From the IMG/VR virus record IMGVR_UViG_2698536372_000033: DNA of 41,555 bases; one strand, 5' to 3'. The stretch is from a virus (taxonomy: Duplodnaviria > Heunggongvirae > Uroviricota > Caudoviricetes). A program made the position numbers and the translations under genes. Shown piece after piece: positions 7,899 through 32,771 of the stretch. Within the stretch, counting starts at the first letter, position 1. Every line of letters starts with the position of its first letter. The notes under the pieces were generated by a model. The model searched no databases and was not told the origin of the DNA. It saw only the letters and a list, made by a program, of their open reading frames with translations.

Positions 7899-8858
7899 AT
7901 GAAAATTTGTATCGACGACGGCTCCACCAACATCAAGCTGGCATGGACTGAGAACGGCGAACGCCGCAACGCCATCAGCCCGAACAGCTTCAAGTCGGAA
8001 TGGTCTGCGCCGTTCGGTGGCACGCAGCCCGCGAACTACATGCTTGATGGCGTGCGCTATGGTTTTGATCCGGTCAGCGATCGCTTTGTCCAGACGACCG
8101 ACACGCAATACCAGTACAGCGATGTGAATATAATTGCCATTCATCACGCGCTGGTCAAATCAGGCATCACACCACAGGAAGTGGATGTGGTTGTCACCCT
8201 GCCACTGAGCGAGTATTTCGATACAAACGCACAGCCGGACATGGCCAACATCAACCGCAAAAAAGCGAACGTCATGCGCCCGGTGGAGTACCAGAACGGC
8301 GAAGCATTCACTATCCGTAACGTACGGGTTATGCCTGAATCCATTCCGGCTGGCTTTAAGGCACTGGCTGACATGAGTCCGTTTGAATCCCTGCTGATTG
8401 TGGATTTGGGCGGAACCACTCTGGATGTGGCAAAGGTTCAGGGGCAACTGGCAGGTATCAGCCAGGTGTTTTGCGATCCACACGTGGGCGTTTCTCTGAT
8501 GGCCGATGCCGTACTGTCGGTGATGGCCACTAACGGTATGCGCACCAGTCACCACATCGCCAATACCATTATCGAACATCGCCATGATGAAGCCTGGCTG
8601 CGCCAGCACATCCACAATGACGCGCATTACGCCAGCCTGATGGCGGTTATTCGTGAAAAGGAAGAAACACTGAAACAACGCGTGATCCGCGCGCTGGCGG
8701 GTTTTTCGGGTTACGGGCGGGTGATGGTTGTCGGTGGAGGGGCGGAGATTGTGGCACCCGCTATCCGCGAAGCCTGCGGAGTTAATGCGACTTTCATCGC
8801 GGACGGGGTGCCACAGTTTGCTCTGGTTAATGGGCTGTACGCAATGGACAAGGAGTAA
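7899..8858 (+). CDS. parM: ParM/StbA-like actin-family segregation ATPase
   Basis: 319 aa; N-terminus MKICIDDGSTNIKLAW and internal VMPESIPAG, DLGGTTLD, VMVVGGGAE closely follow plasmid R1 ParM as I recall it (phosphate-1, phosphate-2 and adenosine motifs of actin fold). Confidence 0.8.
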   Translation: MKICIDDGSTNIKLAWTENGERRNAISPNSFKSEWSAPFGGTQPANYMLDGVRYGFDPVSDRFVQTTDTQYQYSDVNIIAIHHALVKSGITPQEVDVVVTLPLSEYFDTNAQPDMANINRKKANVMRPVEYQNGEAFTIRNVRVMPESIPAGFKALADMSPFESLLIVDLGGTTLDVAKVQGQLAGISQVFCDPHVGVSLMADAVLSVMATNGMRTSHHIANTIIEHRHDEAWLRQHIHNDAHYASLMAVIREKEETLKQRVIRALAGFSGYGRVMVVGGGAEIVAPAIREACGVNATFIADGVPQFALVNGLYAMDKE

Positions 8859-8862
8859 ACCA

Positions 8863-9174
8863 ATGACGACTCCAACCAGACGGATAAGTTTCTATCTGAA
8901 GCCCACCGCCGTCAAGAACGAAGGAGAAGCATGCGCCTGGCTGGACAGCCTTACACCAGAAGCCCGCAAAAGCGGCCAACGCGTGGCTTTTCTGGCCGGG
9001 CTGGCACTTCTGAAAATGAATCCGGCAGAGGCTTATCGACTGGCTGCATGGGCTGGTGATGAAGCGTTATCAGTGACACAAACCAGGACAGAACGCCCCG
9101 CATCACAGCCAGTATCAACCGCACAGATAACCAGTCAGATGGCCGGAAATATCCGGGCGTTATTTCCTGAATAA
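8863..9174 (+). CDS. parR: ParR-like adaptor/centromere-binding protein
   Basis: ATG at 8863, 7 nt after AGGAG and 4 nt after parM stop; 103 aa; RRISFYLKP...LDSLTPEARKS...AFLAGLALLK parallels R1 ParR N-terminus (RRTIAFKLNP...DSIPQGERS...AALTAGLALY); ORF-track start 8728 is too far upstream. Confidence 0.6.
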   Translation: MTTPTRRISFYLKPTAVKNEGEACAWLDSLTPEARKSGQRVAFLAGLALLKMNPAEAYRLAAWAGDEALSVTQTRTERPASQPVSTAQITSQMAGNIRALFPE

Positions 9175-14129: not shown

Positions 14130-15182
14130 ATGAATCTGGTGATGTCAGATATTACCCGCAACAAGCTGGGTTGCTATATGGCGCAGCAGGCGTCGCTTAA
14201 CAATATCCCGGTATCTGCACTGGTATCGCGATTTACCGTGGAACCCGCGGTGCAGCAGCGTTTTGAAAACGCCTCAAAGGAAAGTACCGAATTTACGAAA
14301 AGAATTAACGTGATCGGCGTGACCGACCAGAAAGGCGAAAAAATCCTCCCGGACACCACCGGGCCAATTGCGCGCACGAATAGCAGTTATGACGGCATCA
14401 AACGCCGTAACCCGAATAACGTGATCGATATGAAGTCTCGTCAGTACCAGTGCGAACAGGTGAACTACGATACCTTTATTTCGTACCCACAGCTTGATAC
14501 CTGGGCGGCCCACAGCGATTTTCAGTCCCGTATCAGTACACAGATCGCCCGGCAGGTAGCGCTTGATCGCATCATGATTGGCTTTAACGGCACATCCCAC
14601 GCCTACGAGTCTGATTTTCACACCAACAAGCTGCTTCAGGACGTTAACGTGGGCTGGCTGGAGCACATCAGAACCGATGCCAGCGAGCGCGTAATGAATG
14701 ACGTGACGCTGACCTCCCGCAACATGGACAACACTGTGGCGCACGCGGGTAAGTATGCGAATGCCGATGCTCTGGTACAGGATGCGCGCTCATCCCTGCT
14801 GGATGAATGGCACAAGGAAGCTGACGACCTCGTGGTGATTATGGGGCGCAACCTGTTTAACTCGCTGCGTCTGCCCGTGCTGAACAGCATCAGCGGCCAG
14901 AATCCCAATGCGGAATTACTTGCCGGGCAGCTCATCCTGTCATCGCGCACCATTGGCGGGCTGGGCGTGTTCCTTGCGCCGTTCTTCCCGGATGCAACGA
15001 TGCTTATCACCTCGTTCAACAACCTGTCGATTTACTGGCAGAAAGGTTCAATGCGTCGTCTGATGAAAGACGAGCCGGAATACAACCGCATCGCCACCTA
15101 CCAGTCCATCAATGACGCTTATGTCGTTGAAGACTATGGCAAGTGCGCGATGGTCACTGGCCTGAAGTTCGCCGACAGCTAA
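14130..15182 (+). CDS. N: Major capsid protein (P2 gpN-like)
   Basis: 350 aa (P2 N 357 aa); follows scaffold gene; synteny. Confidence 0.85.
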   Translation: MNLVMSDITRNKLGCYMAQQASLNNIPVSALVSRFTVEPAVQQRFENASKESTEFTKRINVIGVTDQKGEKILPDTTGPIARTNSSYDGIKRRNPNNVIDMKSRQYQCEQVNYDTFISYPQLDTWAAHSDFQSRISTQIARQVALDRIMIGFNGTSHAYESDFHTNKLLQDVNVGWLEHIRTDASERVMNDVTLTSRNMDNTVAHAGKYANADALVQDARSSLLDEWHKEADDLVVIMGRNLFNSLRLPVLNSISGQNPNAELLAGQLILSSRTIGGLGVFLAPFFPDATMLITSFNNLSIYWQKGSMRRLMKDEPEYNRIATYQSINDAYVVEDYGKCAMVTGLKFADS

Positions 15183-15227: not shown

Positions 15228-16028
15228 ATGATTACTCCTGCACAACAACACTGGCAGAACGTGATGGCACAGCGCGCAGGCCGGGCGAATGAAGGTGTGG
15301 ACCACGCCGCGTGTACCGCGCATGAAGAAGTGCTGTATCGTCTGCGTCTGGCACAGGCCAGGCTAAAGGCCATACAGGCCAGAAGCGCGAAAGCCGCCAT
15401 CAAAAAAGAGTTGTTGCCGGACTTTTCCGGCTGGATTGAGGGAACGCTGGAGGCTGACGGCGGGCAACAGGACGAAGTAATTGCCACGCTGATGGTGTGG
15501 GCGATTGACTGCGGCGATCTTCCGCTGGCGCTGCGTATTGGTGCATATGTGGTCCGTCACAACCTCATCATGCCGGATAACTTTGGCCGTACTGCTGCCA
15601 CGGTACTGACCGAAGAAATCTGCAACCCGGTACTGACGCAGGCTGGGACGGATGCCGACGCGGATTTATCCGCCTTTATCGAACCACTGGACACACTTTG
15701 GGAAATTGTCGCCAACCAGGACATTCCGGACGAAGTGCGCGCCAAATTATGCAAGGCGTGTGCCTTTGCCCGTCGTGGCCTGACCGATGCAGACAACATG
15801 GCCTCATCACTGAAGCTGCTGCGCGAAGCGATGCACCTGAACCCGAACGCAGGTGTGAAACGCGAGATTGCAACCCTTTCCCGCGCCCTGAAAAAAGCCG
15901 ATTCCGCAGCCGAACCAGAAGACGCCAGCGCACAGCAGGCGCAGGACGAAAGCAGCAAAAATAAAAAGACAACGCGGAAGCCTGCAACACGAAAAACCAC
16001 CGCGACGCAGAAGGCAAAGCGCGGTTAA
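15228..16028 (+). CDS. M: Terminase small/endonuclease subunit (P2 gpM-like)
   Basis: 266 aa (P2 M about 247 aa); position after capsid gene; basic C-terminal tail. Confidence 0.8.
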   Translation: MITPAQQHWQNVMAQRAGRANEGVDHAACTAHEEVLYRLRLAQARLKAIQARSAKAAIKKELLPDFSGWIEGTLEADGGQQDEVIATLMVWAIDCGDLPLALRIGAYVVRHNLIMPDNFGRTAATVLTEEICNPVLTQAGTDADADLSAFIEPLDTLWEIVANQDIPDEVRAKLCKACAFARRGLTDADNMASSLKLLREAMHLNPNAGVKREIATLSRALKKADSAAEPEDASAQQAQDESSKNKKTTRKPATRKTTATQKAKRG

Positions 16029-16044
16029 CGACTGACCCCGTCAG

Positions 16045-16115
16045 CGGGCGGCGTGCGCGGTGTTCCGGTTTGACTCCGTGACCGTTTACACCGCGCACCC
16101 ACCGCCCGATTTTTT
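16045..16115 (+). terminator. GC-rich long-range stem followed by T6 run between M and L (terminator/attenuator-like)
   Basis: GGGCGGCGTGCGCGGTG (16045-16061) pairs with CACCGCGCACCCACCGCCC (16088-16106), then GATTTTTTC. Confidence 0.35.
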
Positions 16116-16120
16116 CAGGA

Positions 16121-16624
16121 GTGAACCCCATGAGTATGGTTGCCAGAACTAACCCCGGCCCCGCAGAGGACGACATCACCGATACCGATGATGGCGACAC
16201 TCGCATTTCAGCGGGTGCATTCTGGCCGGATATTGTGCTGCGTGAGCTGCGTCTGGCGGTACGACTGCCGGGCCGCGTGACCACCTCCCGCCTGCTGCAT
16301 ACCGCCACCGGGGCCATAGCACACGTTACCCGCGAGCTGGAAGCATGGCAGCAGGAACAACAGGCGGCTGGCTATCAGACGCTGGCCGATGTTCCGGCCC
16401 CTGTAATTAACGGAGAAAGCGTCAATCTCTGGCACTGGCGCAATGCTGTTTATACCGCCACACGCGCCCTGATTCTGGAGCGTTACCGCGATGCGGACAC
16501 AACGGACAAGGGCGACCGCCGGGCGGACGCACTGGATATACAGACATCGGATTTGTGGCGCGATGTGAGCTGGGCCATCTCTGACATTCTGGGACGACCG
16601 CGAATGTTTGCGGAGCTGTGCTGA
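16121..16624 (+). CDS. L: Head completion/stabilisation protein (P2 gpL-like)
   Basis: 167 aa (P2 L 169 aa); synteny. Confidence 0.8.
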   Translation: MNPMSMVARTNPGPAEDDITDTDDGDTRISAGAFWPDIVLRELRLAVRLPGRVTTSRLLHTATGAIAHVTRELEAWQQEQQAAGYQTLADVPAPVINGESVNLWHWRNAVYTATRALILERYRDADTTDKGDRRADALDIQTSDLWRDVSWAISDILGRPRMFAELC

Positions 16625-16824
16625 TGAAAGTGAAGGCACTGGAAGGCGACACCGTGGATTCGCTCTGTTTCCGGTACTACGGCACGACACGGGGCGTCAC
16701 CGAAAAGGTGCTGGATGCCAACCCCGGACTCTGTCAGCAGGTATTTCTGGACGCCGGGCAGGAAGTGGAGATGCCGGAGCCGGAGAAGAAGAAACGAGAA
16801 ATGATTCAGTTGTGGGGGGAGTAG
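16618..16824 (+). CDS. X: Tail protein X (P2 gpX-like, LysM-like)
   Basis: 68 aa (P2 X 67 aa); overlaps L stop; precedes holin. Confidence 0.8.
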   Translation: MLMKVKALEGDTVDSLCFRYYGTTRGVTEKVLDANPGLCQQVFLDAGQEVEMPEPEKKKREMIQLWGE

Positions 16825-16826
16825 CA

Positions 16827-17150
16827 GTGAGCACCATTCAAACAGGGATCACAGAGCAGGTTATTGCGTGGCTCTTTGACCACCTGCCAACGGTGTATGC
16901 AGTAGGCGCGGCTGTCAGCATTTCCGCGCTGATGAGTCTTTATGACGGACGAACACTGGTTCAGACCGTAACGGGATCGCTGGCGTGCGGCGTTCTTGCC
17001 ATGGCCGTGGCCGGGTCGCTGCGCTTCTTCGGGATCCCTGAGGATGCAGTGACGTTTTTTGGTGCCTCAATCGGTTTTATGGGCGCAGAGAAAGCACGCG
17101 ACAAGGTTATTGCAATATTTGATCGCAGGGTGAAGGAGAGGAACGAATGA
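16827..17150 (+). CDS. Holin
   Basis: GTG start 6 nt after GGGGGGA RBS; 107 aa with hydrophobic segments (AVGAAVSISALM, LACGVLAMAVAG); directly precedes endolysin. Confidence 0.65.
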   Translation: MSTIQTGITEQVIAWLFDHLPTVYAVGAAVSISALMSLYDGRTLVQTVTGSLACGVLAMAVAGSLRFFGIPEDAVTFFGASIGFMGAEKARDKVIAIFDRRVKERNE

Positions 17151-17539
17151 GCAACACATTTAAATTCAGCAGCCGAAGCGAAAAGAATTTGCAGGGTGTA
17201 AATCCTGATCTGGTGAAAGTGACCCGACGGGCGCTGGAAATCTCGGAAGTGGATTTTGGTATCACCGAAGGATTGCGCAGTCGTTATCGTCAGAAGCAGC
17301 TCGTGACCACAGGCAAGAGCCAGACCATGAACAGTCGCCATCTCACAGGGCATGCCGTGGATGTTGTGGCTTATGTTGGCAGCCAGGTGTCATGGGAATG
17401 GCCGCTGTACGAAAAAATCGCAGCAGCATTCAGACAGGCCAGCCGGGAACTGAATATTCCGGTGGAATGGGGCGGCGACTGGAAGACCCTGAAAGACGGA
17501 CCGCATTTTCAGTTACCACACGGAGCCTATCCGGCATGA
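17147..17539 (+). CDS. Endolysin, L-alanyl-D-glutamate peptidase (M15-type) rather than P2 K-type lysozyme
   Basis: 130 aa; SRHLTGHAVDV and metal-ligand-like H/D spacing typical of M15 peptidases; between holin and spanins. Confidence 0.7.
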   Translation: MSNTFKFSSRSEKNLQGVNPDLVKVTRRALEISEVDFGITEGLRSRYRQKQLVTTGKSQTMNSRHLTGHAVDVVAYVGSQVSWEWPLYEKIAAAFRQASRELNIPVEWGGDWKTLKDGPHFQLPHGAYPA

Positions 17540-17943
17540 AGCTCTGGCCCACGCTTGGCGTCGCTTTCCTTCTGATTGCCGCATGGGGAACATCCATGCG
17601 TCTGTCGTGGTCGCTGGGCCGGGAGAACGCCAGAAACGAAGCGCAGGCCAGCACCCTGAAAAGTACCGTCGACACACTGAATATCATCAGCGCCGGGGTA
17701 CAGGATATGCAGCAGGTGCTGGCTCAACTCCGCGCGGACAATCAGCAACGCAATCAGGACGGAGAGGTAAGACGTGAACAGCTACGCAACGATATTGCAA
17801 AAGATGAATGCGCCCACGCTTTGCCTGACGCTCGTTTTACTGACAGGTTGCGCAGGCACGCAGAACGCGCCACGGCCAGCGCCGTCAGTCCGGCTTATAC
17901 CGCAGACGCTGACCATGCCGGTAACGCCTCCCCCCTTCCCTGA
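17536..17943 (+). CDS. i-spanin (Rz / LysB-like)
   Basis: ATG 17536 overlaps endolysin stop; N-terminal TM LWPTLGVAFLLIAAWG then coiled-coil/charged periplasmic domain. Confidence 0.6.
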   Translation: MKLWPTLGVAFLLIAAWGTSMRLSWSLGRENARNEAQASTLKSTVDTLNIISAGVQDMQQVLAQLRADNQQRNQDGEVRREQLRNDIAKDECAHALPDARFTDRLRRHAERATASAVSPAYTADADHAGNASPLP

Positions 17944-18085
17944 CCAACCCACATGGGGAAACCTCGGAATATGGGGCGACCGCCTTCTGGATGCACTGGA
18001 AACCTGTAACGCGGATAAACGGGCCATTGCTGAACTGGATAAGAGAATAGCCGAACTGACACACCAGACGGGAGTAACACAATGA
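17804..18085 (+). CDS. o-spanin lipoprotein (Rz1 / LysC-like), partly overlapping i-spanin in another frame
   Basis: MNAPTLCLTLVLLTGCAG signal with lipobox LLTGC; proline-rich mature part. Confidence 0.55.
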   Translation: MNAPTLCLTLVLLTGCAGTQNAPRPAPSVRLIPQTLTMPVTPPPFPDQPTWGNLGIWGDRLLDALETCNADKRAIAELDKRIAELTHQTGVTQ

Positions 18086-19959
18086 CCAGTAAGAACTTTG
18101 CACTGATTACAGCCATGACACAGGCTGAACTGACTCAAAAGGTGAATGAACATCTTGCGAAAGGGTGGCATCTTCAGGGGGAGACGCGGGTTGCCTACGA
18201 ACCCGGCACCCCGTGGTATCTAATGCAGGCAATGGTGGCCGATGGCACTACAGACATCTCACCTGATTCCCCCCAGCACGGCAGCGTGCCGGAGTGGTAT
18301 TACGTGGTGGTACTTGCTGGTCAATCCAATGCCATGTCATATGGTGAGGGAATGCCGCTGCCGGATTCTTACGATGCGCCCCACCCACGCATTAAGCAAC
18401 TGGCCCGTCGCAACACAGTGACTCCCGGTGGTAAAGCATGCGCATTTAACGACATCATTCCGGCAGATCACTGCCTGCATGATGTTCAGGATATGAGCGT
18501 ACTGAATCACCCGAATGCAGACCTGAGCAAAGGGCAGTATGGCTGTGTCGGACAGGGCTTGCATATTGCCAAACGCCTGTTGCCTTACATTCCACAGAAT
18601 GCCGGGATTTTACTGGTTCCATGCTGTCGTGGTGGTTCGGCATTCACCCAGGGCGCGGAGGGGACATTCAGCGAGTCCACAGGAGCCAGTCAGGATTCGG
18701 CTCGCTGGGGTGTGGGTAAACCTTTATATCAGGACCTGATTTTGCGCACGAAGGCCGCATTGCAGAAAAACCCAAAAAACATGCTGCTGGCCGTATGCTG
18801 GATGCAGGGCGAATTTGACATGAGCGCCGCTACGTACTCACAGCAACCTCCGCTGTTTGCGGCCATGCTGAAACAGTTTCGTGCGGACATTACCGAGTTT
18901 AACACGCAGTGTCATGGAGGCAGAGCGGCAAGTGTGCCATGGATTTGTGGTGACACGACGTATTACTGGAAAAACACCTACGGCACGCAGTACGACACCA
19001 TTTACGGGGCGTACAAAAACAGGGAGAGCGACAACGTTTTCTTTGTGCCATTCCTGACCGATGGTAGTGGCAACAATACCTCCACCAACGCACCAACGGA
19101 AGATCCGGATGCTGCAAGTGAGGGATATTACGGTTCGGCATCCCGAACGAACAAAAACTGGGTATCATCAAATCGCCAGACGCATTTCAGTTCATGGGCG
19201 CGCAGGAGCATTATTCCGGATCGTATGGCAACCGCTATTCTGAACGTAGCCGGTCGCACCTTAGCCTTCATCAGTGGTAAGGCACCGGAAATCAAACCCT
19301 CGCCCGGCGGCAACACGCCATCGGGTCCGTCTGCAGATACGTCCGTTCGCACAATCTCCCTGCTGCCGGCAGCCGGAGAGGCTGCTGCGCAGGGCTGGAG
19401 CATTAAGGATGGCGGAATTCAGTTGTCAGATGGTGTATTTAAGATCACCAAGCAGAGCAATAAAACCTGGTCCCTGACGCATCCGGTGGATGACGCAATT
19501 ACCCTGCTGACACAGGGCGGCAGACTGACCTGTAAGTTCCGCCTGTCAGGCGCACTGACCAACAATCAGTTCGGTCTGGGAATTTATCTGTATACCGATG
19601 TAGCGTTACCTGACGTCGTGGCGATGACCGGGACTGGTAACCCGTTCCTGATGTCGTTCTTCACCCAGACCACAGACGGCAAACTGAATCTGATGCATCA
19701 CAAGAAAGCAGGAAACACAAAGTTGGGCGAGTTCGGGAATTACAGTAACGACTGGCAGACGCTGGAGCTGGTGTTCACCGCCAGCAGTGCCACGGTTACT
19801 CCGAAACTGAATGGAGTGGCTGGCCCGGCATTCCAGGTCATAAAAGACAGTCTGACACTGGGGCTGAATGCACTGACGCTGACGGATATTACCAAAAATG
19901 CAACGTATGGCGTTGAGATAGAAAGTCTGGTGCTGGAAATAAATAGTCCTGCAGCGTAA
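18082..19959 (+). CDS. Prophage NanS-p-like carbohydrate esterase (SGNH/sialate O-acetylesterase family) with C-terminal beta-rich putative carbohydrate-binding domain
   Basis: 625 aa; small N-terminal domain ALITAMTQAELTQKVNEHLAKGWHLQGE, then VVVLAGQSNAMSYGEG (GQSN motif of SASA-type esterases); sits after the lysis cassette as NanS-p genes do in lambdoid prophages. Confidence 0.7.
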   Translation: MTSKNFALITAMTQAELTQKVNEHLAKGWHLQGETRVAYEPGTPWYLMQAMVADGTTDISPDSPQHGSVPEWYYVVVLAGQSNAMSYGEGMPLPDSYDAPHPRIKQLARRNTVTPGGKACAFNDIIPADHCLHDVQDMSVLNHPNADLSKGQYGCVGQGLHIAKRLLPYIPQNAGILLVPCCRGGSAFTQGAEGTFSESTGASQDSARWGVGKPLYQDLILRTKAALQKNPKNMLLAVCWMQGEFDMSAATYSQQPPLFAAMLKQFRADITEFNTQCHGGRAASVPWICGDTTYYWKNTYGTQYDTIYGAYKNRESDNVFFVPFLTDGSGNNTSTNAPTEDPDAASEGYYGSASRTNKNWVSSNRQTHFSSWARRSIIPDRMATAILNVAGRTLAFISGKAPEIKPSPGGNTPSGPSADTSVRTISLLPAAGEAAAQGWSIKDGGIQLSDGVFKITKQSNKTWSLTHPVDDAITLLTQGGRLTCKFRLSGALTNNQFGLGIYLYTDVALPDVVAMTGTGNPFLMSFFTQTTDGKLNLMHHKKAGNTKLGEFGNYSNDWQTLELVFTASSATVTPKLNGVAGPAFQVIKDSLTLGLNALTLTDITKNATYGVEIESLVLEINSPAA

Positions 19960-19982
19960 GGATGAACAGGAGAGCAAAACAG

Positions 19983-20450
19983 ATGCTTAAGACAAACAGC
20001 CTCCGGAAGGGCATGATTCATGGGTGTCGCTGGTGTCAGGCCAACCCGGAAAAATTCACCATTTTCGTGGAGAGCGGCAACATTGAAACGACCGGAGAAA
20101 CGCCCTCGTTTGTTTACCGCTATCAGATGGTGATGTTTGTCATGGATTACGCCGGGGAGCTGGACGACCTCACGCTGCCGCTACTGGCGTGGTTATCCGA
20201 AAATCAGCCGCAATTGTTGCTTAATCCGGAGCGTAATCAGGACATCAAATTCTCCGCCGTTATCAATGACGATGACAGCGCCGATCTCCTGTTTACGCTC
20301 CCTCTGCGGGAACGCGTTCGCATCACGCGCAGCAGTCAGGGGGCACCGCAGGCAGAACACCTGCAGGAGCCAAAACCCCGTCTGCCATCTTCCGAAGGCG
20401 ACTGGTCGCATGTATTCCAGGATGTGACGTGGGGTGAAAGCGATGGATAA
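19983..20450 (+). CDS. R: Tail completion protein (P2 gpR-like)
   Basis: From ATG 19983 (AGGAGA RBS) gives 155 aa, the same length as P2 R; synteny. Confidence 0.75.
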   Translation: MLKTNSLRKGMIHGCRWCQANPEKFTIFVESGNIETTGETPSFVYRYQMVMFVMDYAGELDDLTLPLLAWLSENQPQLLLNPERNQDIKFSAVINDDDSADLLFTLPLRERVRITRSSQGAPQAEHLQEPKPRLPSSEGDWSHVFQDVTWGESDG

Positions 20451-21078
20451 GGCATTCACCCGCGTGGATGAAACCTTTGAGGCTATCCGCGACAGCCTGA
20501 ATCAGCAGGCCATCAATAACATCGCCAGAAAGCTGGCACAGGATTTACGCCGCGCCCAGCAGGCGCGTATCCGGTCACAGAAAGCGCCGGACGGGACCGC
20601 GTGGACACCACGCAGACGCCGCGTAACCCGGATACAGGAGCGCATTCGCTTTATCTGGAATAACGAAGCACGCACGCTGAAAAACTGGCATCACGACACG
20701 GGGAAATACGGGCGAACCATTACCGGGTGGGATGAGGATAAAAACAATATCCGCACGTTTTACCGGGATGACATCGACCGCTTTCTGGAAATACGCACCC
20801 GGCGCATCAACCAGGACAGCACAAAGCGCGTCCCCATGTTCGTAAAACTGCGCACCGCCCGCTACCTGAAAGCCCGTGCAGATGCTTCCGGTGTGACGGT
20901 GGGTTACAGCGGCGTGGCCGCACGTATTGCCCGCGTTCATCAGTTCGGTGAGCGCGATCAGGTTGCGCCGGGCATTTTCACCGATTACCCGGTACGTGAG
21001 CTGTTGGGCATCAGTCAGGCAGATGAACGCCTGATTTATAACACGGTGCTGGGCCGGATTGCGGAGGCTGTACGGTGA
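20434..21078 (+). CDS. S: Tail completion protein (P2 gpS-like)
   Basis: Overlaps R; synteny; 214 aa. Confidence 0.7.
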   Translation: MKAMDKAFTRVDETFEAIRDSLNQQAINNIARKLAQDLRRAQQARIRSQKAPDGTAWTPRRRRVTRIQERIRFIWNNEARTLKNWHHDTGKYGRTITGWDEDKNNIRTFYRDDIDRFLEIRTRRINQDSTKRVPMFVKLRTARYLKARADASGVTVGYSGVAARIARVHQFGERDQVAPGIFTDYPVRELLGISQADERLIYNTVLGRIAEAVR

Positions 21079-21656
21079 GCGCAGAACTCATGCGACTGCT
21101 GAGCAACATCATCCGCACTGGGATCATCTCTGAAGTTGATGAGAAGTCCTGGTGCGTGCGCGTTCGCAGCGGCGAACTGGAAACAGGCTGGTTGCGCTGG
21201 AACACCACGCGCGCGGGAGCCTTCAATGTGTGGCTGCCGCCATCACCCGGCGAACAGGTGGTAATTGCCTGCATTGGCGGCAACCCGGAAACCGCCATGA
21301 TAATTGGCAGCCTGTGGAGTGATGCCAATCCGGCCCCCGGCAAAAGCCTGAAAGAAATCGTGGTCAGCGCGCCGGATGGCGCGGTGTTCCGCTACGACGC
21401 GGACGCAGGCGCACTGAGCGCCAGCGGCATGAAAACGGCCACCCTGCAGGCATCCGTCAGTGTGACACTGGACACGCCCGTCGTGGAATGCACAGACCTT
21501 CTGAGAACGGCGACGCTTGACGTCACAAAAGGGGGAAAGATGAGCGGCAATATCACGCACAGCGGCGGCAATTTCACCTCAAACGGCATCACAGTGCATA
21601 CGCATAAACACGGTGGCGTTAAAGGTGGCAGCGATTCGACAGGAGGCCCGCAGTGA
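21075..21656 (+). CDS. V: Baseplate spike/hub protein (P2 gpV-like)
   Basis: 193 aa (P2 V 211 aa); ATGA overlap with S; first gene of baseplate cluster. Confidence 0.8.
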   Translation: MSAELMRLLSNIIRTGIISEVDEKSWCVRVRSGELETGWLRWNTTRAGAFNVWLPPSPGEQVVIACIGGNPETAMIIGSLWSDANPAPGKSLKEIVVSAPDGAVFRYDADAGALSASGMKTATLQASVSVTLDTPVVECTDLLRTATLDVTKGGKMSGNITHSGGNFTSNGITVHTHKHGGVKGGSDSTGGPQ

Positions 21657-22003
21657 CAACCCGCTACACAGGAATGAACCCGGACGGAACGGGAAACCTG
21701 AACGATATGGAGCATCTGAAACAGTCAGTCAGGGACATCCTGACCACCCCGCTGGCAAGCCGGGTTATGCGACGGGAATATGGCAGCCTTGTGCCCGATT
21801 TAATTGACGAACCCATGAATAACACCACTCGTCTGCAATGCATGAGTGCTGCCGTGATTGCGCTGACACGATGGGAACCCCGCATTGCCCTGGACGCCAT
21901 CGACGTTGTCTGGAAGGCAGGAGGCCGCGCCGGGGTGACGCTGTCGGGCACTGTCATGCAGACCATGCAGAATGTTGAATTAACCATCACGCTGAGGGAG
22001 TAA
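21653..22003 (+). CDS. W: Baseplate wedge protein (P2 gpW-like, GPW/gp25 family)
   Basis: 116 aa (P2 W 115 aa); synteny. Confidence 0.85.
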   Translation: MTTRYTGMNPDGTGNLNDMEHLKQSVRDILTTPLASRVMRREYGSLVPDLIDEPMNNTTRLQCMSAAVIALTRWEPRIALDAIDVVWKAGGRAGVTLSGTVMQTMQNVELTITLRE

Positions 22004-23428: not shown

Positions 23429-25561
23429 ATGAGTACCACAACACGAAAATTTAAAACCGTTATCACCGATACAGGTGCCAAAAAATTAGCTCAGGCAGCC
23501 GCGCCAGATGGTAAGCCTGTCCGCCTGACTCATATGGCCGTGGGCGACGGTGGCGGCGCGTTGCCCACACCAGACAGTAAGCAGACCCGTCTGGTGCATG
23601 AGGTGTGGCGACACACTGTTAATCGCGTCATCCTGGACGCAACACATCAGAACCGCATTATTGCGGAGCTGGTTATTCCTCCAGAAACGGGCGGATTCTG
23701 GATCCGGGAAATTGGTGTGTTTGATGAGCACGGCGATTTAATCGCGGTGGGCAATACTGCCGAAAGTTACAAGCCAGCCGTTGCCGAAGGGTCCGGACGT
23801 GCACAAACATTTCGCACCATTCTGACCGTATCCAGCACTGCCACTGTGGCGCTTACCGTGGATAACACCATGGTGATGGCCACAGTGGATTACGTGGATA
23901 ACGAACTGAAAGAGCATGAACAGTCACGATGTCACCCGGATGCCTCGCTGACCGCAAAAGGCTTTGTTCAACTCAGTAGCGCCACTAACAGCGATTCTGA
24001 AACGCTGGCTGCAACGCCGAAAGCGGTTAAGGTCGCGTATGATCTTGCTAACGGAAAATATACAGCGCAGGATGCCACAACAGCGCGAAAAGGCCTTGTC
24101 CAGCTTAGTAGTGCAACCAACAGTACATCTGAAACGCTGGCGGCAACATCAAATGCAGTAAAAGCTGCCTATGACAATGCTGAAAAACGTCTGCAGAAAG
24201 CTAAGAATGGTGAGGATATCTCTGATAAAGACACCTTTACAAAAAATATCGGTGCCTGCCGTGCATATAGTGCAGAGCTGAATATTGGTGGAGATAGTGA
24301 AGCATGGACAACTGCGCAGTTGATTTTTTGGCTAGAGAGTCAGGGGGCATTTAACCATCCTTACTGGATGTGCAAAGGCTCATGGGCTTATGCAAATAAT
24401 AAGGTCATTACAGATACAGGTTGCGGAAGTATTTGTCTTGCAGGTGCTGTTGTGGAAGTTATTGGCACCCGCGGCGCAATGACCATACGCATTACCACAC
24501 CGAGTACATCCAGCGGTGAAGGCATCCCTAATGCTCAATTTACTTATATTAATCATGGTGATGCTTATGCTCCTGGCTGGCGAAGGGACTATAACTCCAG
24601 GAATAAGCCAACAGCATCAGAGATCGGGGCGTTACCGTCAGATGGGACAGCAGTATCGTCAGTTAATCTGGCTTCAAAAGGTCGGCTGACCGCCCTGACA
24701 GATAATATGCAGGGGGCCACAGGTCTGGAGTTATACGAGGCGTATAACAACGGATATCCAACAACGTATGGAAATATCATTCACCTGAAAGGGATGACAG
24801 CCGTTGGCGAAGGCGAATTACTCATCGGCTGGAGTGGTATAAGCGGTGCTCATGCTCCGGCATTTATTCGTTCACGACGGGATACGCCCGACGCAAACTG
24901 GTCGCCGTGGGCGCAGCTTTACACCTCGGCTCATCCTCCTGAAGAGTTTTATCCAGTCGGTGCACCGATTCCGTGGCCATCAGATACCGTTCCGTCTGGT
25001 TATGCCCTGATGCAGGGGCAGACTTTTGACAAATCTGCATACCCGAAACTTGCAGTCGCTTATCCGTCAGGCGTTATTCCTGATATGCGTGGCTGGACGA
25101 TTAAGGGCAAGCCCGGCAGTGGTCGTGCCGTATTGTCTCAGGAACAGGACGGCATTAAATCGCACACCCACAGCGCCAGCGCATCCAGTACGGATTTGGG
25201 GACGAAAACCACATCGTCGTTTGATTACGGTACTAAAACGACCAGTTCATTTGATTACGGCACAAAAACTACGAATAGCGCTGGAAATCATTCACACAAT
25301 ATACCTGTTGGTCACACTGGCGCGGGGAATGGTGTATCAGCCGGTTATAACGCTGCGTTAGGTACTGGTACCACGTCGAGCGCAGGCGAGCATGCTCACA
25401 ATGTATATATCGGTGCCCATAACCACACTATCGGCATTGGTGCTCATGCCCATTCTGTCATTATTGGTCCCCACGGACACACCATCACCGTTAACGCTAC
25501 GGGTAACGAAGAAAACACCGTAAAAAACATCGCATTTAACTATATTGTGAGGCTTGCATAA
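23429..25561 (+). CDS. H: Tail fibre protein (P2 gpH-like) with His-rich C-terminal tip domain
   Basis: 710 aa; N-terminus [20 protein letters not shown]...MAVGDGGG...HEVWRH...[13 protein letters not shown]...AESYKPA.AEGSGR matches P2 H anchor domain; duplicated [21 protein letters not shown] blocks; C-terminal HxH-rich tip. Confidence 0.9.
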
Positions 25562-25902
25562 TGACATTCAGAATGAGTGAACACTCACGGACCATAAAAA
25601 TTTATAATCTACTGACCGGAACCAATGAGTTTATTGGTGAAGGTGATGCATACATTCCACCTCATACAGGTCTGCCTGCAAACAGTACCGATATTGCCCC
25701 GCCAGATATTCCGGCTGGCTTCGTGGCCGTTTTCAACAGTGATGAGGCATCGTGGCATCTCGTTGAAGACCATCGGGGTAAAACGGTTTATGACGTGGCA
25801 TCAGGGGACTCGTTATTTATTTCTGAACTACGGTGCACCGATTCCGTGGCCATCAGATACCGTTCCGTCTGGTTATGCCCTGATGCAGGGGCAGACTTTT
25901 GA
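25561..25902 (+). pseudogene. Truncated tail fibre assembly chaperone (tfa, copy 1) interrupted by a duplication junction
   Basis: First about 90 codons identical to tfa copies 2-4, then reading frame runs into a second copy of the H 3' region at about 25831. Confidence 0.55.
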
Positions 25903-26434
25903 CAAATCTGCATACCCGAAACTTGCAGTCGCTTATCCGTCAGGCGTTATTCCTGATATGCGTGGCTGGACGATTAAGGGCAAGCCCGGCAGTGGTCGTG
26001 CCGTATTGTCTCAGGAACAGGACGGCATTAAATCGCACACCCACAGCGCCAGCGCATCCAGTACGGATTTGGGGACGAAAACCACATCGTCGTTTGATTA
26101 CGGTACTAAAACGACCAGTTCATTTGATTACGGCACAAAAACTACGAATAGCGCTGGAAATCATTCACACAATATACCTGTTGGTCACACTGGCGCGGGG
26201 AATGGTGTATCAGCCGGTTTTAACGCTGCGTTAGGTACTGGTACCACGTCGAGCGCAGGCGGGCATGCTCACAATGTATATATCGGTGCCCATAACCACA
26301 CTATCGGCATTGGTGCTCATGCCCATTCTGTCATTATTGGTCCCCACGGACACACCATCACCGTTAACGCTACGGGTAACGAAGAAAACACCGTAAAAAA
26401 CATCGCATTTAACTATATTGTGAGGCTTGCATAA
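25833..26434 (+). repeat. Duplicate of H C-terminal tip module (about 600 bp, about 99% identical to 24960-25561) with no start codon of its own
   Basis: Nucleotide repeat read directly; encodes [15 protein letters not shown]...NYIVRLA with only two substitutions (Y to F, E to G). Confidence 0.7.
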
Positions 26435-27006
26435 TGACATTCAGAATGAGTGAACAATCACGGACCATAAAAATTTATAATCTACTGGCTGGAACCAATG
26501 AGTTTATTGGTGAAGGTGATGCATACATTCCACCTCATACAGGTCTGCCTGCAAACAGTACCGATATTGCCCCGCCAGATATTCCGGCTGGCTTCGTGGC
26601 CGTTTTCAACAGTGATGAGGCATCGTGGCATCTCGTTGAAGACCATCGGGGAAAAACCGTCTATGACGTGGCTTCCGGCGACGCGTTATTTATTTCTGAA
26701 CTTGGCCCATTACCGGAAAATGTCACCTGGTTATCCCCGGAAGGGGAGTTTCAGAAGTGGAACGGCACAGCCTGGGTGAAAGATGCAGAAGCAGAAAAAC
26801 TGTTCCGGATCCGGAAGGCGGAAGAAACAAAAAACAGCCTGATGCAGATGGCCAGTGAGCATATTGCGCCACTTCAGGATGCCGTAGATTTGGATATTGC
26901 GACGGAGGAAGAGGCATCGTTACTGACTGCATGGAAGACATATCGGGTATTGTTGAATCGTGTTGATACAACAGTAGCATCGGATGTTGAGTGGCCAGAG
27001 TACTAA
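26434..27006 (+). CDS. Tail fibre assembly chaperone (tfa, copy 2, full length)
   Basis: 190 aa; start overlaps tip stop (ATAATG) as for H-G in P2. Confidence 0.75.
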
Positions 27007-27331
27007 AACGACCAGTTCATTTGATTACGGCACAAAAACTACGAATAGCGCTGGAAATCATTCACACAATATACCTGTTGGTCACACTGGCGCGGGGAAT
27101 GGTGTATCAGCCGGTTATAACGCTGCGTTAGGTACTGGTACCACGTCGAGCGCAGGCGAGCATGCTCACAATGTATATATCGGTGCCCATAACCACACTA
27201 TCGGCATTGGTGCTCATGCCCATTCTGTCATTATTGGTCCCCACGGACACACCATCACCGTTAACGCTACGGGTAACGAAGAAAACACCGTAAAAAACAT
27301 CGCATTTAACTATATTGTGAGGCTTGCATAA
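26996..27331 (+). repeat. Third, shorter copy of the H tip module (from AGTACTAAAACGACC onward)
   Basis: Identical to 25237-25561; begins at the same nucleotide as the tip segment fused into gene 30641-32149. Confidence 0.7.
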
Positions 27332-27909
27332 TGACATTCAGAATGAGTGAACACTCACGGACCATAAAAATTTATAATCTACTGACCGGAACCAATGAGT
27401 TTATTGGTGAAGGTGATGCATACATTCCACCTCATACAGGTCTGCCTGCAAACAGTACCGATATTGCCCCGCCAGATATTCCGGCTGGCTTCGTGGCCGT
27501 TTTCAACAGTGATGAGGCATCGTGGAATCTCGTTGAAGACCATCGGGGAAAAACCGTCTATGACGTGGCTTCCGGCGACGCGTTATTTATTTCTGAACTT
27601 GGCCCATTACCGGAAAATGTCACCTGGTTATCCCCGGAAGGGGAGTTTCAGAAGTGGAACGGCACAGCCTGGGTGAAAGATGCAGAAGCAGAAAAACTGT
27701 TCCGGATCCGGAAGGCGGAAGAAACAAAAAACAGCCTGATGCAGATGGCCAGTGAGCATATTGCGCCACTTCAGGATGCCGTAGATTTGGATATTGCGAC
27801 GGAGGAAGAGGCATCGTTACTGACTGCATGGAAGACATATCGGGTATTGTTGAATCGTGTTGATACAACAGTAGCATCGGATGTTGAGTGGCCAGTCGCC
27901 CCGCAATAA
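27331..27909 (+). CDS. Tail fibre assembly chaperone (tfa, copy 3, full length)
   Basis: 192 aa; near-identical to copy 2. Confidence 0.75.
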
Positions 27910-27916
27910 AAGGATA

Positions 27917-27944
27917 AAGCCATCGATAGAAATATTGATGGCTT
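27917..27944. terminator. Bidirectional hairpin between convergent tfa and acetyltransferase
   Basis: AAGCCATC-N12-GATGGCTT inverted repeat. Confidence 0.45.
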
Positions 27945-27952
27945 CATGTACT

Positions 27953-28525
27953 CTATTTATACAATACAACACCGCTCTTTTTTGTTATATATGTGCAGTT
28001 CGATGGTATATCTTTATTTATAAAAGACATTGCACCTATTTTTACATTATCCCCAATTTTACGTGATAATCCAATGATGCAACAATTAGCTCCGATATCA
28101 ACGTTACTACCAATTTTTACTCTTGAACCAGGCATGTCACCATCTACCTGTCCAATGGTAGTATTCTGTCGCAAAACCAGATTTTCACCAGCATCAACAG
28201 CAAAATGAACAACAATTCCAGTATGATGGGGAATTGTTAAACCTTTTCCAATATTTGCGCCCAATCCAATTTCGCAACCAAATCTGTTAATTATATTATT
28301 GTTTAACTTTCTGGCTGCTTTCTTATGTAATTTATTGCCATTAATATACATTTCATTAGCCAGTCTCCACCAGAAAAGGAAATTCCGATTGCGCTGCTTC
28401 TTCTCTCTTAATAGTCGCCAAACATCCATTTTTTCACGCCTGATGATTTCAGCCATCCAATAGCTCAATAGAGCTTTTGAATTCCCGAAGATGACAAAGT
28501 GAATAGCTATTAAGTAACATAACAT
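27953..28525 (-). CDS. Hexapeptide-repeat acyltransferase, serine O-acetyltransferase (CysE)-like, copy 1
   Basis: 190 aa; GANIGKGLTIPHHTGIVVHFAVDAGENLVL...IGSNVDIGANCCIIG...IGDNVKIGAMSFI matches left-handed beta-helix hexapeptide repeats and the CysE-type GxxIxH region; AT-rich. Confidence 0.75.
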   Translation of the reverse strand: MLCYLIAIHFVIFGNSKALLSYWMAEIIRREKMDVWRLLREKKQRNRNFLFWWRLANEMYINGNKLHKKAARKLNNNIINRFGCEIGLGANIGKGLTIPHHTGIVVHFAVDAGENLVLRQNTTIGQVDGDMPGSRVKIGSNVDIGANCCIIGLSRKIGDNVKIGAMSFINKDIPSNCTYITKKSGVVLYK

Positions 28526-28992
28526 ATTGCAACTGCCTATATTTTTGGGTTTCTATGGTTATATATTGACATTATAATTAAAACAATAATCATCAGTGTG
28601 TTACTGCGTTCCTGCTAAACTAAATCAACGCACAATGTAAACACAAATGTTAATTTTAAACTGAGCGCTAAAGGGATGTCAATATTGTATTGATAATGAG
28701 TTGCAAGATTGCCAACACTTTCTATATTTTTGGATGTAATAATTTATATTTTATCTATTTAGTGTTTCTTTAGACTTATTAAGGATGTCATTATTAATTT
28801 ATGGCTTGCCATTTCTATACATATCTGTTAAAAATTTTGACTTGTTTGTTGAAAATAGATTTAATTGATTGGTTTATTTTTTACATGACGCTCTTTAATA
28901 TAGCTTCAGGTATATATAAGCACAATGCATTATTTCCAGAGGAAATTAACAAAATTGTTAGCTCTTATTTGTTGAGCTTATAGATATTAATT

Positions 28993-29012
28993 AAGGCCCG
29001 ATTCCGGGCCTT
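28993..29012. terminator. Hairpin AAGGCCCG-ATTC-CGGGCCTT with flanking T/A runs (bidirectional terminator-like)
   Basis: Read directly; at the end of the 490-bp AT-rich spacer. Confidence 0.45.
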
Positions 29013-29280
29013 TCCTCATTCCGGCTTTTCGGGAAACGTTACTGGAAGGATGGAGGTATCCGTGGATTCGACTTTCTGCGCATAGAGAATCCACTCGGTT
29101 AATTTTTGTTTACCCTGAACGGAAATAATGCCTAGCCGTAACTGTGAGTCCCAGAGCTGAGTTTTATCCCTGACGAGCTGTAGCAGGCTTTGCTTTTCTT
29201 TTTCCGCTTGTTGTCTTTGCATGACCGGTTGAGAAGTTACTTTGCATACCATTACCTCCTGACAACGTAGGAGGGAACTT

Positions 29281-29610
29281 GTGCTTGACACACAGGAATT
29301 AGCTCCAGTTGCTATTGCGCTCCTGCTTTCAGTAATTGGTGGGATAGGCACGTTCCTGATGGATGTCCGAGACGGTCGCCAGTCTGGCAATTTGTTGGGA
29401 TTGGTTACGGAGATCTTTGTTGCAGTGACAGCTGGCGCGGTGGCGTACCTATTGGGGCAACACGAGGGCTGGGAGTTATCAATTACGTACTTAATGGTAA
29501 CGATAGCCAGCAATAACGGTCATGAGGTGATTTCAGGGATGAAACGAGTGAATATCGATAGCATTCTGAATGTTCTTACAAGTTTGGTGAAAAAGGGAGG
29601 TGGGAAATGA
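29281..29610 (+). CDS. Small two-helix membrane protein (holin-like topology), gene 1 of novel operon
   Basis: 109 aa; GTG start 5 nt after TAGGAGGG; hydrophobic helices LAPVAIALLLSVIGGIGTFLM and IFVAVTAGAVAYLLG; basic C-terminal tail. Confidence 0.5.
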   Translation: MLDTQELAPVAIALLLSVIGGIGTFLMDVRDGRQSGNLLGLVTEIFVAVTAGAVAYLLGQHEGWELSITYLMVTIASNNGHEVISGMKRVNIDSILNVLTSLVKKGGGK

Positions 29611-30050
29611 TTGGCTGGGGTGTATGCGCTCTTGCGTTAGCCTTAGCCGATCGCTATTTGCTAAAACGCAAGGACATCACGCATTTAGAACTTGGTGATG
29701 TGGAAATTAAACCGGGTTTCATCCGGGTGCCGTTCAAATACCGGTCTAAATTCCCGTTTTTGCGCGGCGCAACGGTCAGATATTGGATCCGCGATGTTCA
29801 GAAGCCAACGACAGTGATTGAAGGCGAACAACGTTGTCTGACGTCGGCTGAACAGGGCGAAAACAGTGAATGGTTGTACATACCCACTGAATATATGGGT
29901 AAAGGAGAACGGCTGTGGCATTTCAACGTCATGGTTACGCATGGCGACTCGTTCATTAACCCGTTGTATCGGATTTTCCCTGTTACTCAGCAAATCCGCA
30001 GAAGTTACGTAATAAATCTCGCACAGGATGTGTCAGATGACGAAAAATAA
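29607..30050 (+). CDS. N-terminally membrane-anchored protein of unknown function, gene 2 of novel operon
   Basis: 147 aa; start overlaps previous stop (ATGA); N-terminal hydrophobic MIGWGVCALALALA. Confidence 0.5.
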   Translation: MIGWGVCALALALADRYLLKRKDITHLELGDVEIKPGFIRVPFKYRSKFPFLRGATVRYWIRDVQKPTTVIEGEQRCLTSAEQGENSEWLYIPTEYMGKGERLWHFNVMVTHGDSFINPLYRIFPVTQQIRRSYVINLAQDVSDDEK

Positions 30051-30639
30051 GTATGCAACGGTCGATTTTGACCAGGTTAATGAAAAGGGGCTGAAATCCC
30101 TTATCGCGGCGATCAATAAAACCGGTGTTACGGTAATTGAGGTTGACTCCAGCAACCGCGCAACAACGAAAGATGGCGTTAAAGTTAAAACCGCAAAGCT
30201 GGTTCTTAACGACGGACAAATTCTTGCCATACAGGTAAACGATACTGGCGATATATCGTCTGTGAGGCTGAATGGAAAAGCTATTCCTAACGCTCAGTCG
30301 CCGGATATCAAGACGCTTGGTACCGTCATGGGGCAAGCGGCCCGCAAAAACTCCGCAAAATTCCAGAAATCACTGATCGCCAAAGCGAAACGTGTTGCCA
30401 ATCCGGTAGACAAGAAACCGGCAGTAAAATCCAACTTTCAGCGCCTGCAAGAGGCAAAACAGCGGAATGCTCAGGTGGTTGCCGCTTATAAATCAGCGCA
30501 GAACTCGGTGTCTTTCAATCAACAGCAGATCACTGATTTGCGGGCGAAGCTGGATAAGGAGACAGGCCGACTCAATAACGAAAAGGCCCGAAATGGCGAA
30601 CTCAAACGCCGTCTTAAGCAACTGAAAGCAGGAAATTAA
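30028..30639 (+). CDS. Coiled-coil protein of unknown function, gene 3 of novel operon
   Basis: 203 aa; overlaps gene 2 by 23 nt; contains motif KNSAKFQ then basic/coiled-coil tail; a 23-nt stretch is near-identical to one in gene 4. Confidence 0.5.
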
Positions 30640-30640
30640 C

Positions 30641-32149: not shown

Positions 32150-32728
32150 TGACATTCAGAATGAGTGAACACTCACGGACCATAAAAATTTATAATCTAC
32201 TGACCGGAACCAATGAGTTTATTGGTGAAGGTGATGCATACATTCCACCTCATACAGGTCTGCCTGCAAACAGTACCGATATTGCCCCGCCAGATATTCC
32301 GGCTGGCTTCGTGGCCGTTTTCAACAGTGATGAGGCATCGTGGCATCTCGTTGAAGACCATCGGGGTAAAACGGTTTATGACGTGGCATCAGGGGACTCG
32401 TTATTTATTTCTGAACTCGGTCCATTACCGGAAAATGTTACCTGGTTGTCGCCGTATGGAGAGTATCAGAAGTGGAACGGCACATCCTGGGTGAAAGATG
32501 CAGAAGCAGAAAAACTGTTTCGGATAAGGGAGGCGGAAGAAACAAAAAAACAGCCTGATGCAGGTAGCCAGCGAGCATATTGCGCCACTTCAGGATGCCG
32601 TAGATTTGGATATTGCAACGGAGGAAGAGGCATCGTTACTGGCTGCATGGAAGACATACCGGGTATTGTTGAATCGTGTTAATACAGCGGTAGCAGCGGA
32701 TGTTGAGTGGCCAGTCGCCCCACAATAA
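32149..32728 (+). pseudogene. Tail fibre assembly chaperone (tfa, copy 4) with +1 frameshift in an A7 run
   Basis: A7 at about 32550-32556 versus A6 in copies 2 and 3; ORF terminates early at 32682 while the shifted frame continues to the normal stop at 32726-32728. Confidence 0.55.
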
Positions 32729-32734
32729 AGAGAA

Positions 32735-32764
32735 AAAGCCATCGATTGAAATATAGATGGCTTT
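32735..32764. terminator. Bidirectional hairpin between convergent tfa copy 4 and acetyltransferase copy 2
   Basis: AAAGCCATC-N12-GATGGCTTT inverted repeat, paralogous to 27917-27944. Confidence 0.45.
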
Positions 32765-32771
32765 ATGTACT

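Follow-up and report, generated by a model that had tools for sequence, protein, structure and literature searches.

A NanS-p-type esterase gene in the late operon of a P2-like Escherichia coli prophage joins a P2-specific N-terminal domain to a payload shared with lambdoid alleles

The IMG/VR virus record IMGVR_UViG_2698536372_000033, a stretch of 41,555 nucleotides from a member of the Caudoviricetes (hereafter the window), carries a sialate O-acetylesterase gene of the NanS-p type between the lysis and tail genes of a P2-type phage. Very probably, this gene encodes a functional NanS-p esterase that serves as polymorphic cargo in the late operon of P2-like Escherichia coli prophages, joining an esterase-lectin payload that recombines freely to a DUF1737 domain confined to P2-like phages, which this reading takes as a probable capsid tether. 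The role generally ascribed to NanS-p esterases is to open O-acetylated sialic acids of mucin to pathogenic E. coli as food, and work on them has centred on Shiga toxin (Stx) prophages and other lambdoid prophages; here, about 7% of complete E. coli genomes are found to hold a further, P2-like copy.

The only long open reading frame (ORF) at this place starts with ATG and encodes 625 amino acids; antisense ORFs within it are all of 123 amino acids or fewer, or of 129 amino acids at the 5′ edge, and were treated as unsupported. The original prediction, made from the letters without database searches, had described a NanS-p-type protein of this length with a small N-terminal domain, a GQSN motif and a C-terminal domain, lying between the spanin genes and tail gene R of a P2-type backbone. 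These points held up: the ORF list and Pfam gave the protein at exactly the predicted coordinates, Pfam together with matches to the structures 3PT5 and 6YP6 supports the three-domain NanS-p architecture, Pfam, PHROG and RefSeq place the gene in the slot between lysC and gpR, and the P2-type backbone is supported by Pfam, PHROG and the annotation of strain 11368. Pfam recognizes three domains, each above its curated cut-off, namely DUF1737 (PF08410) at residues 4-53 (E=1.1e-6; 28.8 bits, the cut-off being 24), which belongs to a divergent sequence subtype, SASA (PF03629) at residues 75-271 (E=2.3e-11), and DUF6645 (PF20350) at residues 476-586 (E=2.6e-19); the first two are the domains for which a profile search had been proposed. 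PHROG 143 covers the protein end to end with 1075 bits, no NCBIfam model matched it, and RefSeq holds it as WP_000202151.1 under the label 'DUF6645 domain-containing protein'. The protein begins with the DUF1737 domain and has no signal peptide.

In a phmmer search of the PDB, the crystal structure 3PT5 (E. coli NanS/YjhS) matches residues 69-388 at E=5.8e-124, far beyond chance, with 183 of 320 aligned columns identical (57%), and residues 430-622 match the solved NanS-p C-terminal domain (6YP6) at E=3.2e-31. Ser82, within the GQSN motif (residues 80-83), and His368, within RQTHFSS, line up with the Ser and His of NanS in the 3PT5 alignment and are invariant among 93 homologues. NanS is not known to have the classical Asp of a catalytic triad and probably relies on a Ser-His dyad. 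The positions invariant in the 93 family members are G80-Q-S-N83, R183, G184, W240, G243, E244, G290-D-T-T293, R365, H368 and F369, and the Q242-G243-E244 block is invariant or nearly so. Under the published definitions of NanS blocks I-IV, which run from GQSN to R-x-x-H (PMC10462455), block IV of the window protein reads RQTH. The aromatic residues proposed to bind sugar in vb_24B_21, Y510/Y515/Y540/F611 (PMC10462455), map to F497/Y502/F527/L593, three of the four still being aromatic. Lambdoid alleles at 82% overall identity are annotated or known as 9-O-acetyl-Neu5Ac deacetylases, every tested NanS-p of EDL933 and O104:H4 was active (summarized in PMC8065619), and NanS-p relatives strip O-acetyl groups from sialic acids, both free and bound to mucin, and permit growth on Neu5,9Ac2 (PMC8065619; PMC8319020). 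Since a SASA core homologous to NanS is combined with DUF1737 and DUF6645, all the sequence features that define NanS-p are present, and by domains and motifs the protein is a full member of the family. The Ser82/His368 machinery would remove O-acetyl groups from mucin sialic acids of the Neu5,9Ac2 type, and the C-terminal jelly-roll most likely directs the enzyme to glycans. An allele of this kind has probably been assayed already: C227-11 (O104:H4) carries the P2-borne allele (NZ_CP011331, 1681594-1683474) and has five nanS-like places in its chromosome by blastn, and it is the background of the strain whose five nanS-p alleles were reported active (PMC8065619).

The type of N-terminal domain follows the phage backbone. 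The P2-type domain, marked by the conserved loop EPGxP[WF]YLMQ, was found in the window, an O104:H4 prophage, one frameshifted metagenome contig, four more assemblies and seven IMG/VR contigs. All of these carriers are P2-like with the esterase always in the lysC-gpR slot, and they include a second lineage, which has a lysozyme of the K type and a capsid protein only 57-60% identical to that of the window. When the domain was searched by tblastn against 50,697 phage records, it matched three only, all P2-like, and none of the approximately 350 lambdoid records that carry NanS-p. Its DNA is present in 376 of the 5,426 complete E. coli genomes that formed the survey set, with identity of at least 99% in 367, and it adjoins lysC in nearly every sampled row. 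The lambdoid-type domain (KHYD...EGWQPxG) was seen in seven alleles, all in lambdoid contexts or in fragments consistent with one; one of these alleles adjoins lambda-type head genes gpD and gpE, and another lies on a 3.7-kb contig that shows a methylase fragment 5′, a DUF1378 gene 3′ and nothing else. None of the P2-like loci examined carried an N-terminal domain of the lambdoid type. These comparisons point to a protein cleanly divided into a DUF1737 domain specific to the backbone and an esterase-lectin payload that can be exchanged.

The payload also occurs with other N-termini. In the 917-residue protein P0093 (locus L015, 1015-3768), it is joined to a lambda-type side-tail-fibre N-terminus (PF08400) at a prophage end, after a tail-fibre assembly gene. 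In relatives of 682-759 residues (P0112, P0069, P0031 and P0124), a domain of about 110 residues of unknown type replaces DUF1737; the gene for P0112 (locus L017, 7001-9070) lies in a Mu-like prophage, after a gin-like resolvase gene beside an invertible tail-fibre segment, and is followed by DUF1378 and DUF826 genes. A near-identical homologue of 752 residues (P0013) has an extra phage tail Collar domain and is probably a fusion produced by assembly or gene calling. With the 72-residue N-terminus as query, a search for homologous proteins returned only fragments of the same allele, and HMMER found 11 matches to the domain among 1.84 billion representatives, mostly stand-alone DUF1737 proteins of 57-87 residues with no usable context. 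Distant IMG/VR loci (L035-L042, 39-41% identity) were dropped, as they had no Pfam-recognizable context.

Exchange with lambdoid phages is evident in the domain-wise comparison. Overall protein identity to the alleles of Stx1a phages and phage 434 is 82%. Against the lambdoid phage 434 allele, it runs from 30% in the N-terminal domain to 85% in the core, 98% in linker 2 and 92% in the C-terminal domain, and the N-terminal domain is 30-35% identical to the 434/Stx1a alleles together. The corresponding values are 22%, 67%, 32% and 39% against 933W, and 100%, 88%, 85% and 91% against the P2-like allele of O104:H4. By sliding-window identity, nucleotide similarity to lambdoid alleles starts at about position 18290, with none before it. 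At positions 19341-19520 the sequence equals that of the phage 434 allele (100% identity), while identity to the P2-borne O104:H4 allele there is only 73-93%. In a larger set, in which P2-borne alleles were compared with alleles whose N-terminal domain is of the lambdoid type, identity reaches 98% in the core and 97% in the C-terminal domain but does not exceed 35% in the N-terminal domain. In the K-lysozyme lineage, a DUF1378 gene follows the esterase gene (between esterase and gpR at 11036-11200 in L019, 11046-11213 in L021 and 11105-11257 in L023), as it follows nanS-p in some lambdoid phages. Since DUF1378 normally follows lambdoid nanS-p, its presence in P2-like phages is a footprint of lambdoid DNA. 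The original prediction had proposed transfer between phage families. This is supported as far as exchange with lambdoid alleles goes, but the gene was not moved as a unit: the transfer appears real and partial, the core and C-terminal part being swapped while the N-terminal domain, on these alignments, stays P2-specific. Substrate for such gene conversion is ample, since nanS-like DNA is present in 4,518 of the 5,426 genomes, at a median of 2 and a maximum of 19 places, and the payload would recombine freely with nanS-p alleles of co-resident lambdoid prophages.

The genes 5′ of the esterase are, in order, gpL, gpX, holin, M15 endolysin, LysB-like i-spanin and LysC o-spanin, and those 3′ are gpR, gpS, V, W, J, I and H (Pfam, PHROG and RefSeq). 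The ATG of the esterase gene (18082-18084) and the TGA that ends lysC (18083-18085) overlap as ATGA (18082-18085), with GGGAG at 18070-18074, 7 nucleotides before the ATG, while the esterase TAA (19957-19959) is followed 23 nucleotides on by the start of gpR at 19983, which has its own AGGAGA. A consensus promoter scan gave one weak site straddling the start codon, 2.6 sites being expected by chance, and a scan for terminators found none flanking the gene on the plus strand. The start is apparently translationally coupled to the lysC stop, with no convincing promoter or terminator of its own, from which we infer that the esterase is made only when the late genes fire. A by-eye search 5′ of gpO for the P2-type Ogr-dependent motif TGT-N12-ACA gave no clean match, so membership of the late operon rests on gene order and coupling. 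With the late-operon structure of established P2 biology as the model, the esterase gene would be co-transcribed in the operon extending from the scaffold gene across the lysis genes as far as R and S, and the enzyme, without a signal peptide, would leave the cell at phage lysis.

A position after the lysis genes had been taken in the original prediction as a trait of lambdoid NanS-p, which proved wrong: the lambdoid gene lies 5′ of the holin and lysis cassette, and only the P2-like gene follows the spanins. In phage 434, the Stx1a-type PPyecE_EH1910 and 933W, nanS-p lies between Q/stx and the holin gene; in lambdoid loci L024 and L026 the holin gene is directly 3′ of nanS-p, and in L025 an antiterminator gene is 5′ of it and the contig ends before the lysis genes. 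The same Q/stx-nanS-p-holin order has been described as conserved by Pascal et al. (PMC10462455). The window gene is thus outside the typical lambdoid slot, 3′ of Q/stx and 5′ of holin S, a position that is usual for NanS-p genes but does not define them.

The surrounding prophage has the P2-type features of capsid, gpO scaffold, gpL, gpX, gpR, gpS, V-W-J-I-H, sheath/tube and ogr genes (Pfam, PHROG and RefSeq), the capsid gene gpN lying at 14130-15182. The nearest phage records are classed as Peduoviridae, and three records of this type hold esterase copies cut by the record end that are 97-99% identical over the part present. Positions 16000-22000 (6 kb) are 100% identical in many O26:H11 genomes such as strain 11368, in which RefSeq annotates an intact P2-like prophage from integrase through ogr beside yecA. 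In the survey set, queried for filled and empty sites with the two flanks joined, the prophage lineage is present in 1,051 of the 5,426 genomes; the flanks are contiguous in 679 and split by the esterase gene in about 370, which places the lysC-gpR arrangement in about 7% of complete E. coli genomes. Carriers include O26:H11, the O104:H4 outbreak clone, O103:H2, O111 and ST131. A scan of genome contigs gave only 5 loci (Escherichia sp., E. albertii, Proteus and one metagenome-assembled genome), none of them P2-like. In the empty-site relative PEC148, lysC overlaps gpR directly, and homology with the window is lost over approximately the last 52 nucleotides of lysC and the first 43 of gpR, both of which are replaced; the variable module therefore spans about 18030-20025. 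No source was found for the two short replaced flanks, and the K-lysozyme lineage, tried as the source of the altered lysC 3′ and gpR 5′ ends, gave no convincing nucleotide match. The esterase gene belongs to the polymorphic cargo of a P2-like (Peduoviridae) E. coli prophage. The arrangement is common and has already been sequenced and annotated, and is therefore unsurprising in itself.

What the P2-specific domain does is a more tentative matter. In phage phi24B, gp84 is a processed capsid-decoration protein whose DUF1737 domain binds hexon centres as a hexamer via a hairpin 'tooth' (bioRxiv 10.64898/2026.04.10.717836). An AlphaFold2 (AF2) model of residues 1-61 (predicted local distance difference test score 82) has a beta-alpha-beta-beta arrangement with a hairpin at residues 40-45, and its elements match the verbal description in that preprint; a Foldseek search of the model against the PDB returned no significant match (best E=0.095). 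Of all segments, the hairpin loop at residues 40-45 varies most from one phage type to another, and a type-specific loop on matching fold elements fits a capsid-specific anchor. The existence of the payload on a tail-fibre N-terminus also speaks for the anchor idea. By analogy with phi24B gp84, the P2-only DUF1737 domain might, speculatively, tether the esterase to the phage's own capsid. It is possible, though we rather doubt it, that DUF1737 is a capsid-type-specific anchor, that NanS-p is a modular system of anchor and payload, and that the P2-like phage displays the esterase on its capsid; on the same tentative footing, one payload may circulate among P2-like, lambdoid, Mu-like and tail-fibre contexts, with each phage family supplying its own virion-attachment domain.

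Several observations weigh against the anchor or the wider reading, and those on capsid geometry, capsid identity and the left flank leave the anchor unproven. P2-type capsids have a triangulation number of T=7 and are without a flat central hexon. It is only on such hexons, in a T=9 capsid, that the phi24B domain sits (bioRxiv 10.64898/2026.04.10.717836). Within the K-lysozyme lineage, capsid proteins share 98% identity and N-terminal domains only 66-75%; thus, the domain does not track the capsid protein closely. The link between domain and backbone could be purely historical. The lysC flank has no homology to lambdoid DNA, so that lambdoid gene conversion replaces internal segments only, and this non-homologous left flank alone would exclude lambdoid N-terminal domains. 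Leu593 replaces one of the four proposed sugar-binding aromatics.

These points bear on an alternative, to which we give somewhat less than an even chance, namely that the same enzyme is the product of a purely soluble conversion gene and that its P2-confined N-terminal domain reflects history: one old acquisition, after which gene conversion homogenised only the parts with lambdoid homology. Beside a P2-specific left flank, double crossovers with lambdoid alleles would replace internal DNA only, and N-terminal identity across P2-like lineages (48-61%) resembles that of the major capsid protein (57-60%) and gpR (54-59%), as expected for vertical descent. Chromosomal NanS, moreover, works without DUF1737, 3PT5 covering only the core. 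However, the EPGxP[WF]YLMQ loop and the domain are intact in at least five diverged P2-like sublineages even though they are dispensable for catalysis, and illegitimate events have occurred at the right end (DUF1378 import), yet no lambdoid-type N-terminal domain appears in the P2-like loci examined. The capsid anchoring of the homologous domain in phi24B also argues against a domain kept by history (bioRxiv 10.64898/2026.04.10.717836).

A role in the virion could also be directed at bacteria, with the enzyme modifying receptors of O-acetylated bacterial polysaccharide (O-antigen, capsule or polysialic acid) and so aiding adsorption or preventing the trapping of progeny on debris, instead of supplying the lysogen with sialic acid from mucin. 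The fusion of the payload to the N-terminus of a lambda-type side tail fibre, alongside a gene for tail-fibre assembly, its place in a Mu-like prophage adjoining an invertible tail-fibre segment, and two hexapeptide acetyltransferase-like ORFs in the window are all compatible with this, and de-O-acetylation of lipopolysaccharide has been raised as a possibility in a review (PMC8065619). It is nevertheless unlikely, given that the core has 57% identity with NanS, an enzyme that acts on Neu5,9Ac2, that close NanS-p relatives act on free and mucin-bound sialic acids (PMC8065619; PMC8319020), and that nothing in this analysis ties the enzyme to an E. coli surface glycan. Far less probable still is that the gene is a decaying passenger, now without function in the prophage. 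About 65% of related prophages lack the insertion, which is therefore dispensable for the phage, but the ORF is intact with all catalytic residues kept, the N-terminal module is at least 99% identical in 367 genomes, intact segments are still exchanged with other alleles without disturbance of the frame, and the gene is tightly packed with translational coupling. A functional NanS-p esterase carried as P2-like late-operon cargo remains the preferred reading.

Table 1. Coordinates in the window of the esterase gene, its domains and linkers, the tracts that differ from relatives, and the neighbouring genes.
Feature	Position	Strand	Basis
nanS-p-type gene, 625 amino acids	18082..19959	+	ORF; Pfam DUF1737+SASA+DUF6645; PHROG 143 full length; identical in O26:H11 strain 11368
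N-terminal DUF1737 domain, residues 1-55, P2-type variant, hairpin loop Y39-EPGTPWY-46	18082..18246	+	Pfam; AF2 model
Linker 1, Ser/Pro-rich, residues 56-70, TTDISPDSPQHGSVP	18247..18291	+	Sliding-window nucleotide identity; alignment
SGNH/SASA catalytic core, residues 71-390	18292..19251	+	phmmer against PDB 3PT5; alignment of 93 homologues
Ser82 codon	18325-18327	+	Within catalytic core
His368 codon	19183-19185	+	Within catalytic core
Linker 2, Pro/Ser-rich, residues 391-430	19252..19371	+	Alignment; 98% identical to phage 434 allele
C-terminal DUF6645 lectin-like jelly-roll domain, residues 431-625	19372..19956	+	Pfam; PDB 6YP6 match
Recombinant tract, 93-100% nucleotide identity to phage 434 allele, 73-93% to O104:H4 P2-like allele	19160..19550	+	Sliding-window identity
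DNA differing from empty-site relatives of the same lineage	18030..20025	.	Alignment with PEC148 empty site; 679 versus about 370 counts
M15-family endolysin gene	17147..17539	+	Pfam Peptidase_M15_4; PHROG 465
LysB-like i-spanin gene (DUF2570)	17536..17943	+	PHROG 214 Rz-like spanin; RefSeq annotation
lysC, Rz1-like o-spanin gene	17897..18085	+	Pfam LysC; RefSeq annotation; sequence
P2 gpR tail completion/terminator gene	19983..20450	+	Pfam P2_Phage_GpR (PF06891), E=1.2e-37; annotation; sequence

Elsewhere, the window differs from strain 11368 at 25561-33400, 3′ of tail-fibre gene H. This stretch holds an extra fibre cassette with a Collar domain and four Caudo_TAP ORFs beyond the one tail-fibre assembly gene of strain 11368, together with the two hexapeptide acetyltransferase-like ORFs, which lie on the minus strand in DNA of low G+C content (27953-28525 and 32772-33377), and a P1-type block of lydB (29607-30050) and two DarA_N proteins (30028-32149). 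Its best DNA matches are P1-like plasmids of approximately 95 kb from O26 strains, and in 58 genomes a single place covers 80% or more of the 8-kb stretch. Annotation of the identical prophage also shows that the replication endonuclease gene is followed, at about 7899-9174 (L001, 9900-11175), by plasmid-type parM and partition genes, and that a hok/gef gene lies near ogr.

The P2-borne copy is labelled in RefSeq only as 'DUF6645/DUF1737 domain-containing protein', and surveys that look downstream of stx therefore miss it. The pairing of a backbone-specific N-terminal domain with an exchanged payload provides a genetic prediction that tests the new claim of DUF1737 as a capsid anchor. If the anchor reading is true, the esterase would rank as the first decoration protein that a P2-type phage encodes in its own genome, and P2-like coliphages would gain a virion surface that interacts with mucus.

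Among known systems, the closest are the NanS-p proteins of the Stx1a phages, 434, H-19B and YYZ-2008, all lambdoid, which have the same three domains at about 82% overall identity and whose genes, like that of the window, lie in the late transcript beside the lysis cassette. They differ in the N-terminal domain (30-35% identical, with another hairpin loop) and in being encoded 5′ of the holin gene under Q control, whereas the window gene lies 3′ of the spanins inside a P2-type late operon. L0105 of 933W and gp84 of phi24B (vb_24B_21) share DUF1737, SASA and a lectin-like C-terminal domain with the window protein, with identical catalytic blocks and a homologous C-terminal fold (6YP6), but are only 22%, 67% and 39% identical to it in the N-terminal domain, core and C-terminal domain; phi24B gp84 is a demonstrated, processed decoration on a T=9 podovirus capsid, whereas such a role on a P2-type capsid would be a proposal. 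Chromosomal NanS (YjhS, 3PT5), with a 57% identical core and aligned catalytic Ser and His positions, is without DUF1737 and DUF6645 and is encoded by a gene of the nan regulon, not by phage cargo. A precedent for an accessory protein at hexamer centres is Psu of phage P4, which binds gpN hexamers of P2-type capsids. It has no sequence relation to the window protein and no enzymatic payload, so the likeness is a functional analogy only. Other cargo of P2-like prophages in pathogenic E. coli includes the cdt-V operon (PMC8065619). It is a different gene from the one carried here. Cargo of the cdt-V type occupies different insertion slots, whereas the esterase gene of the window is embedded in the essential late operon.

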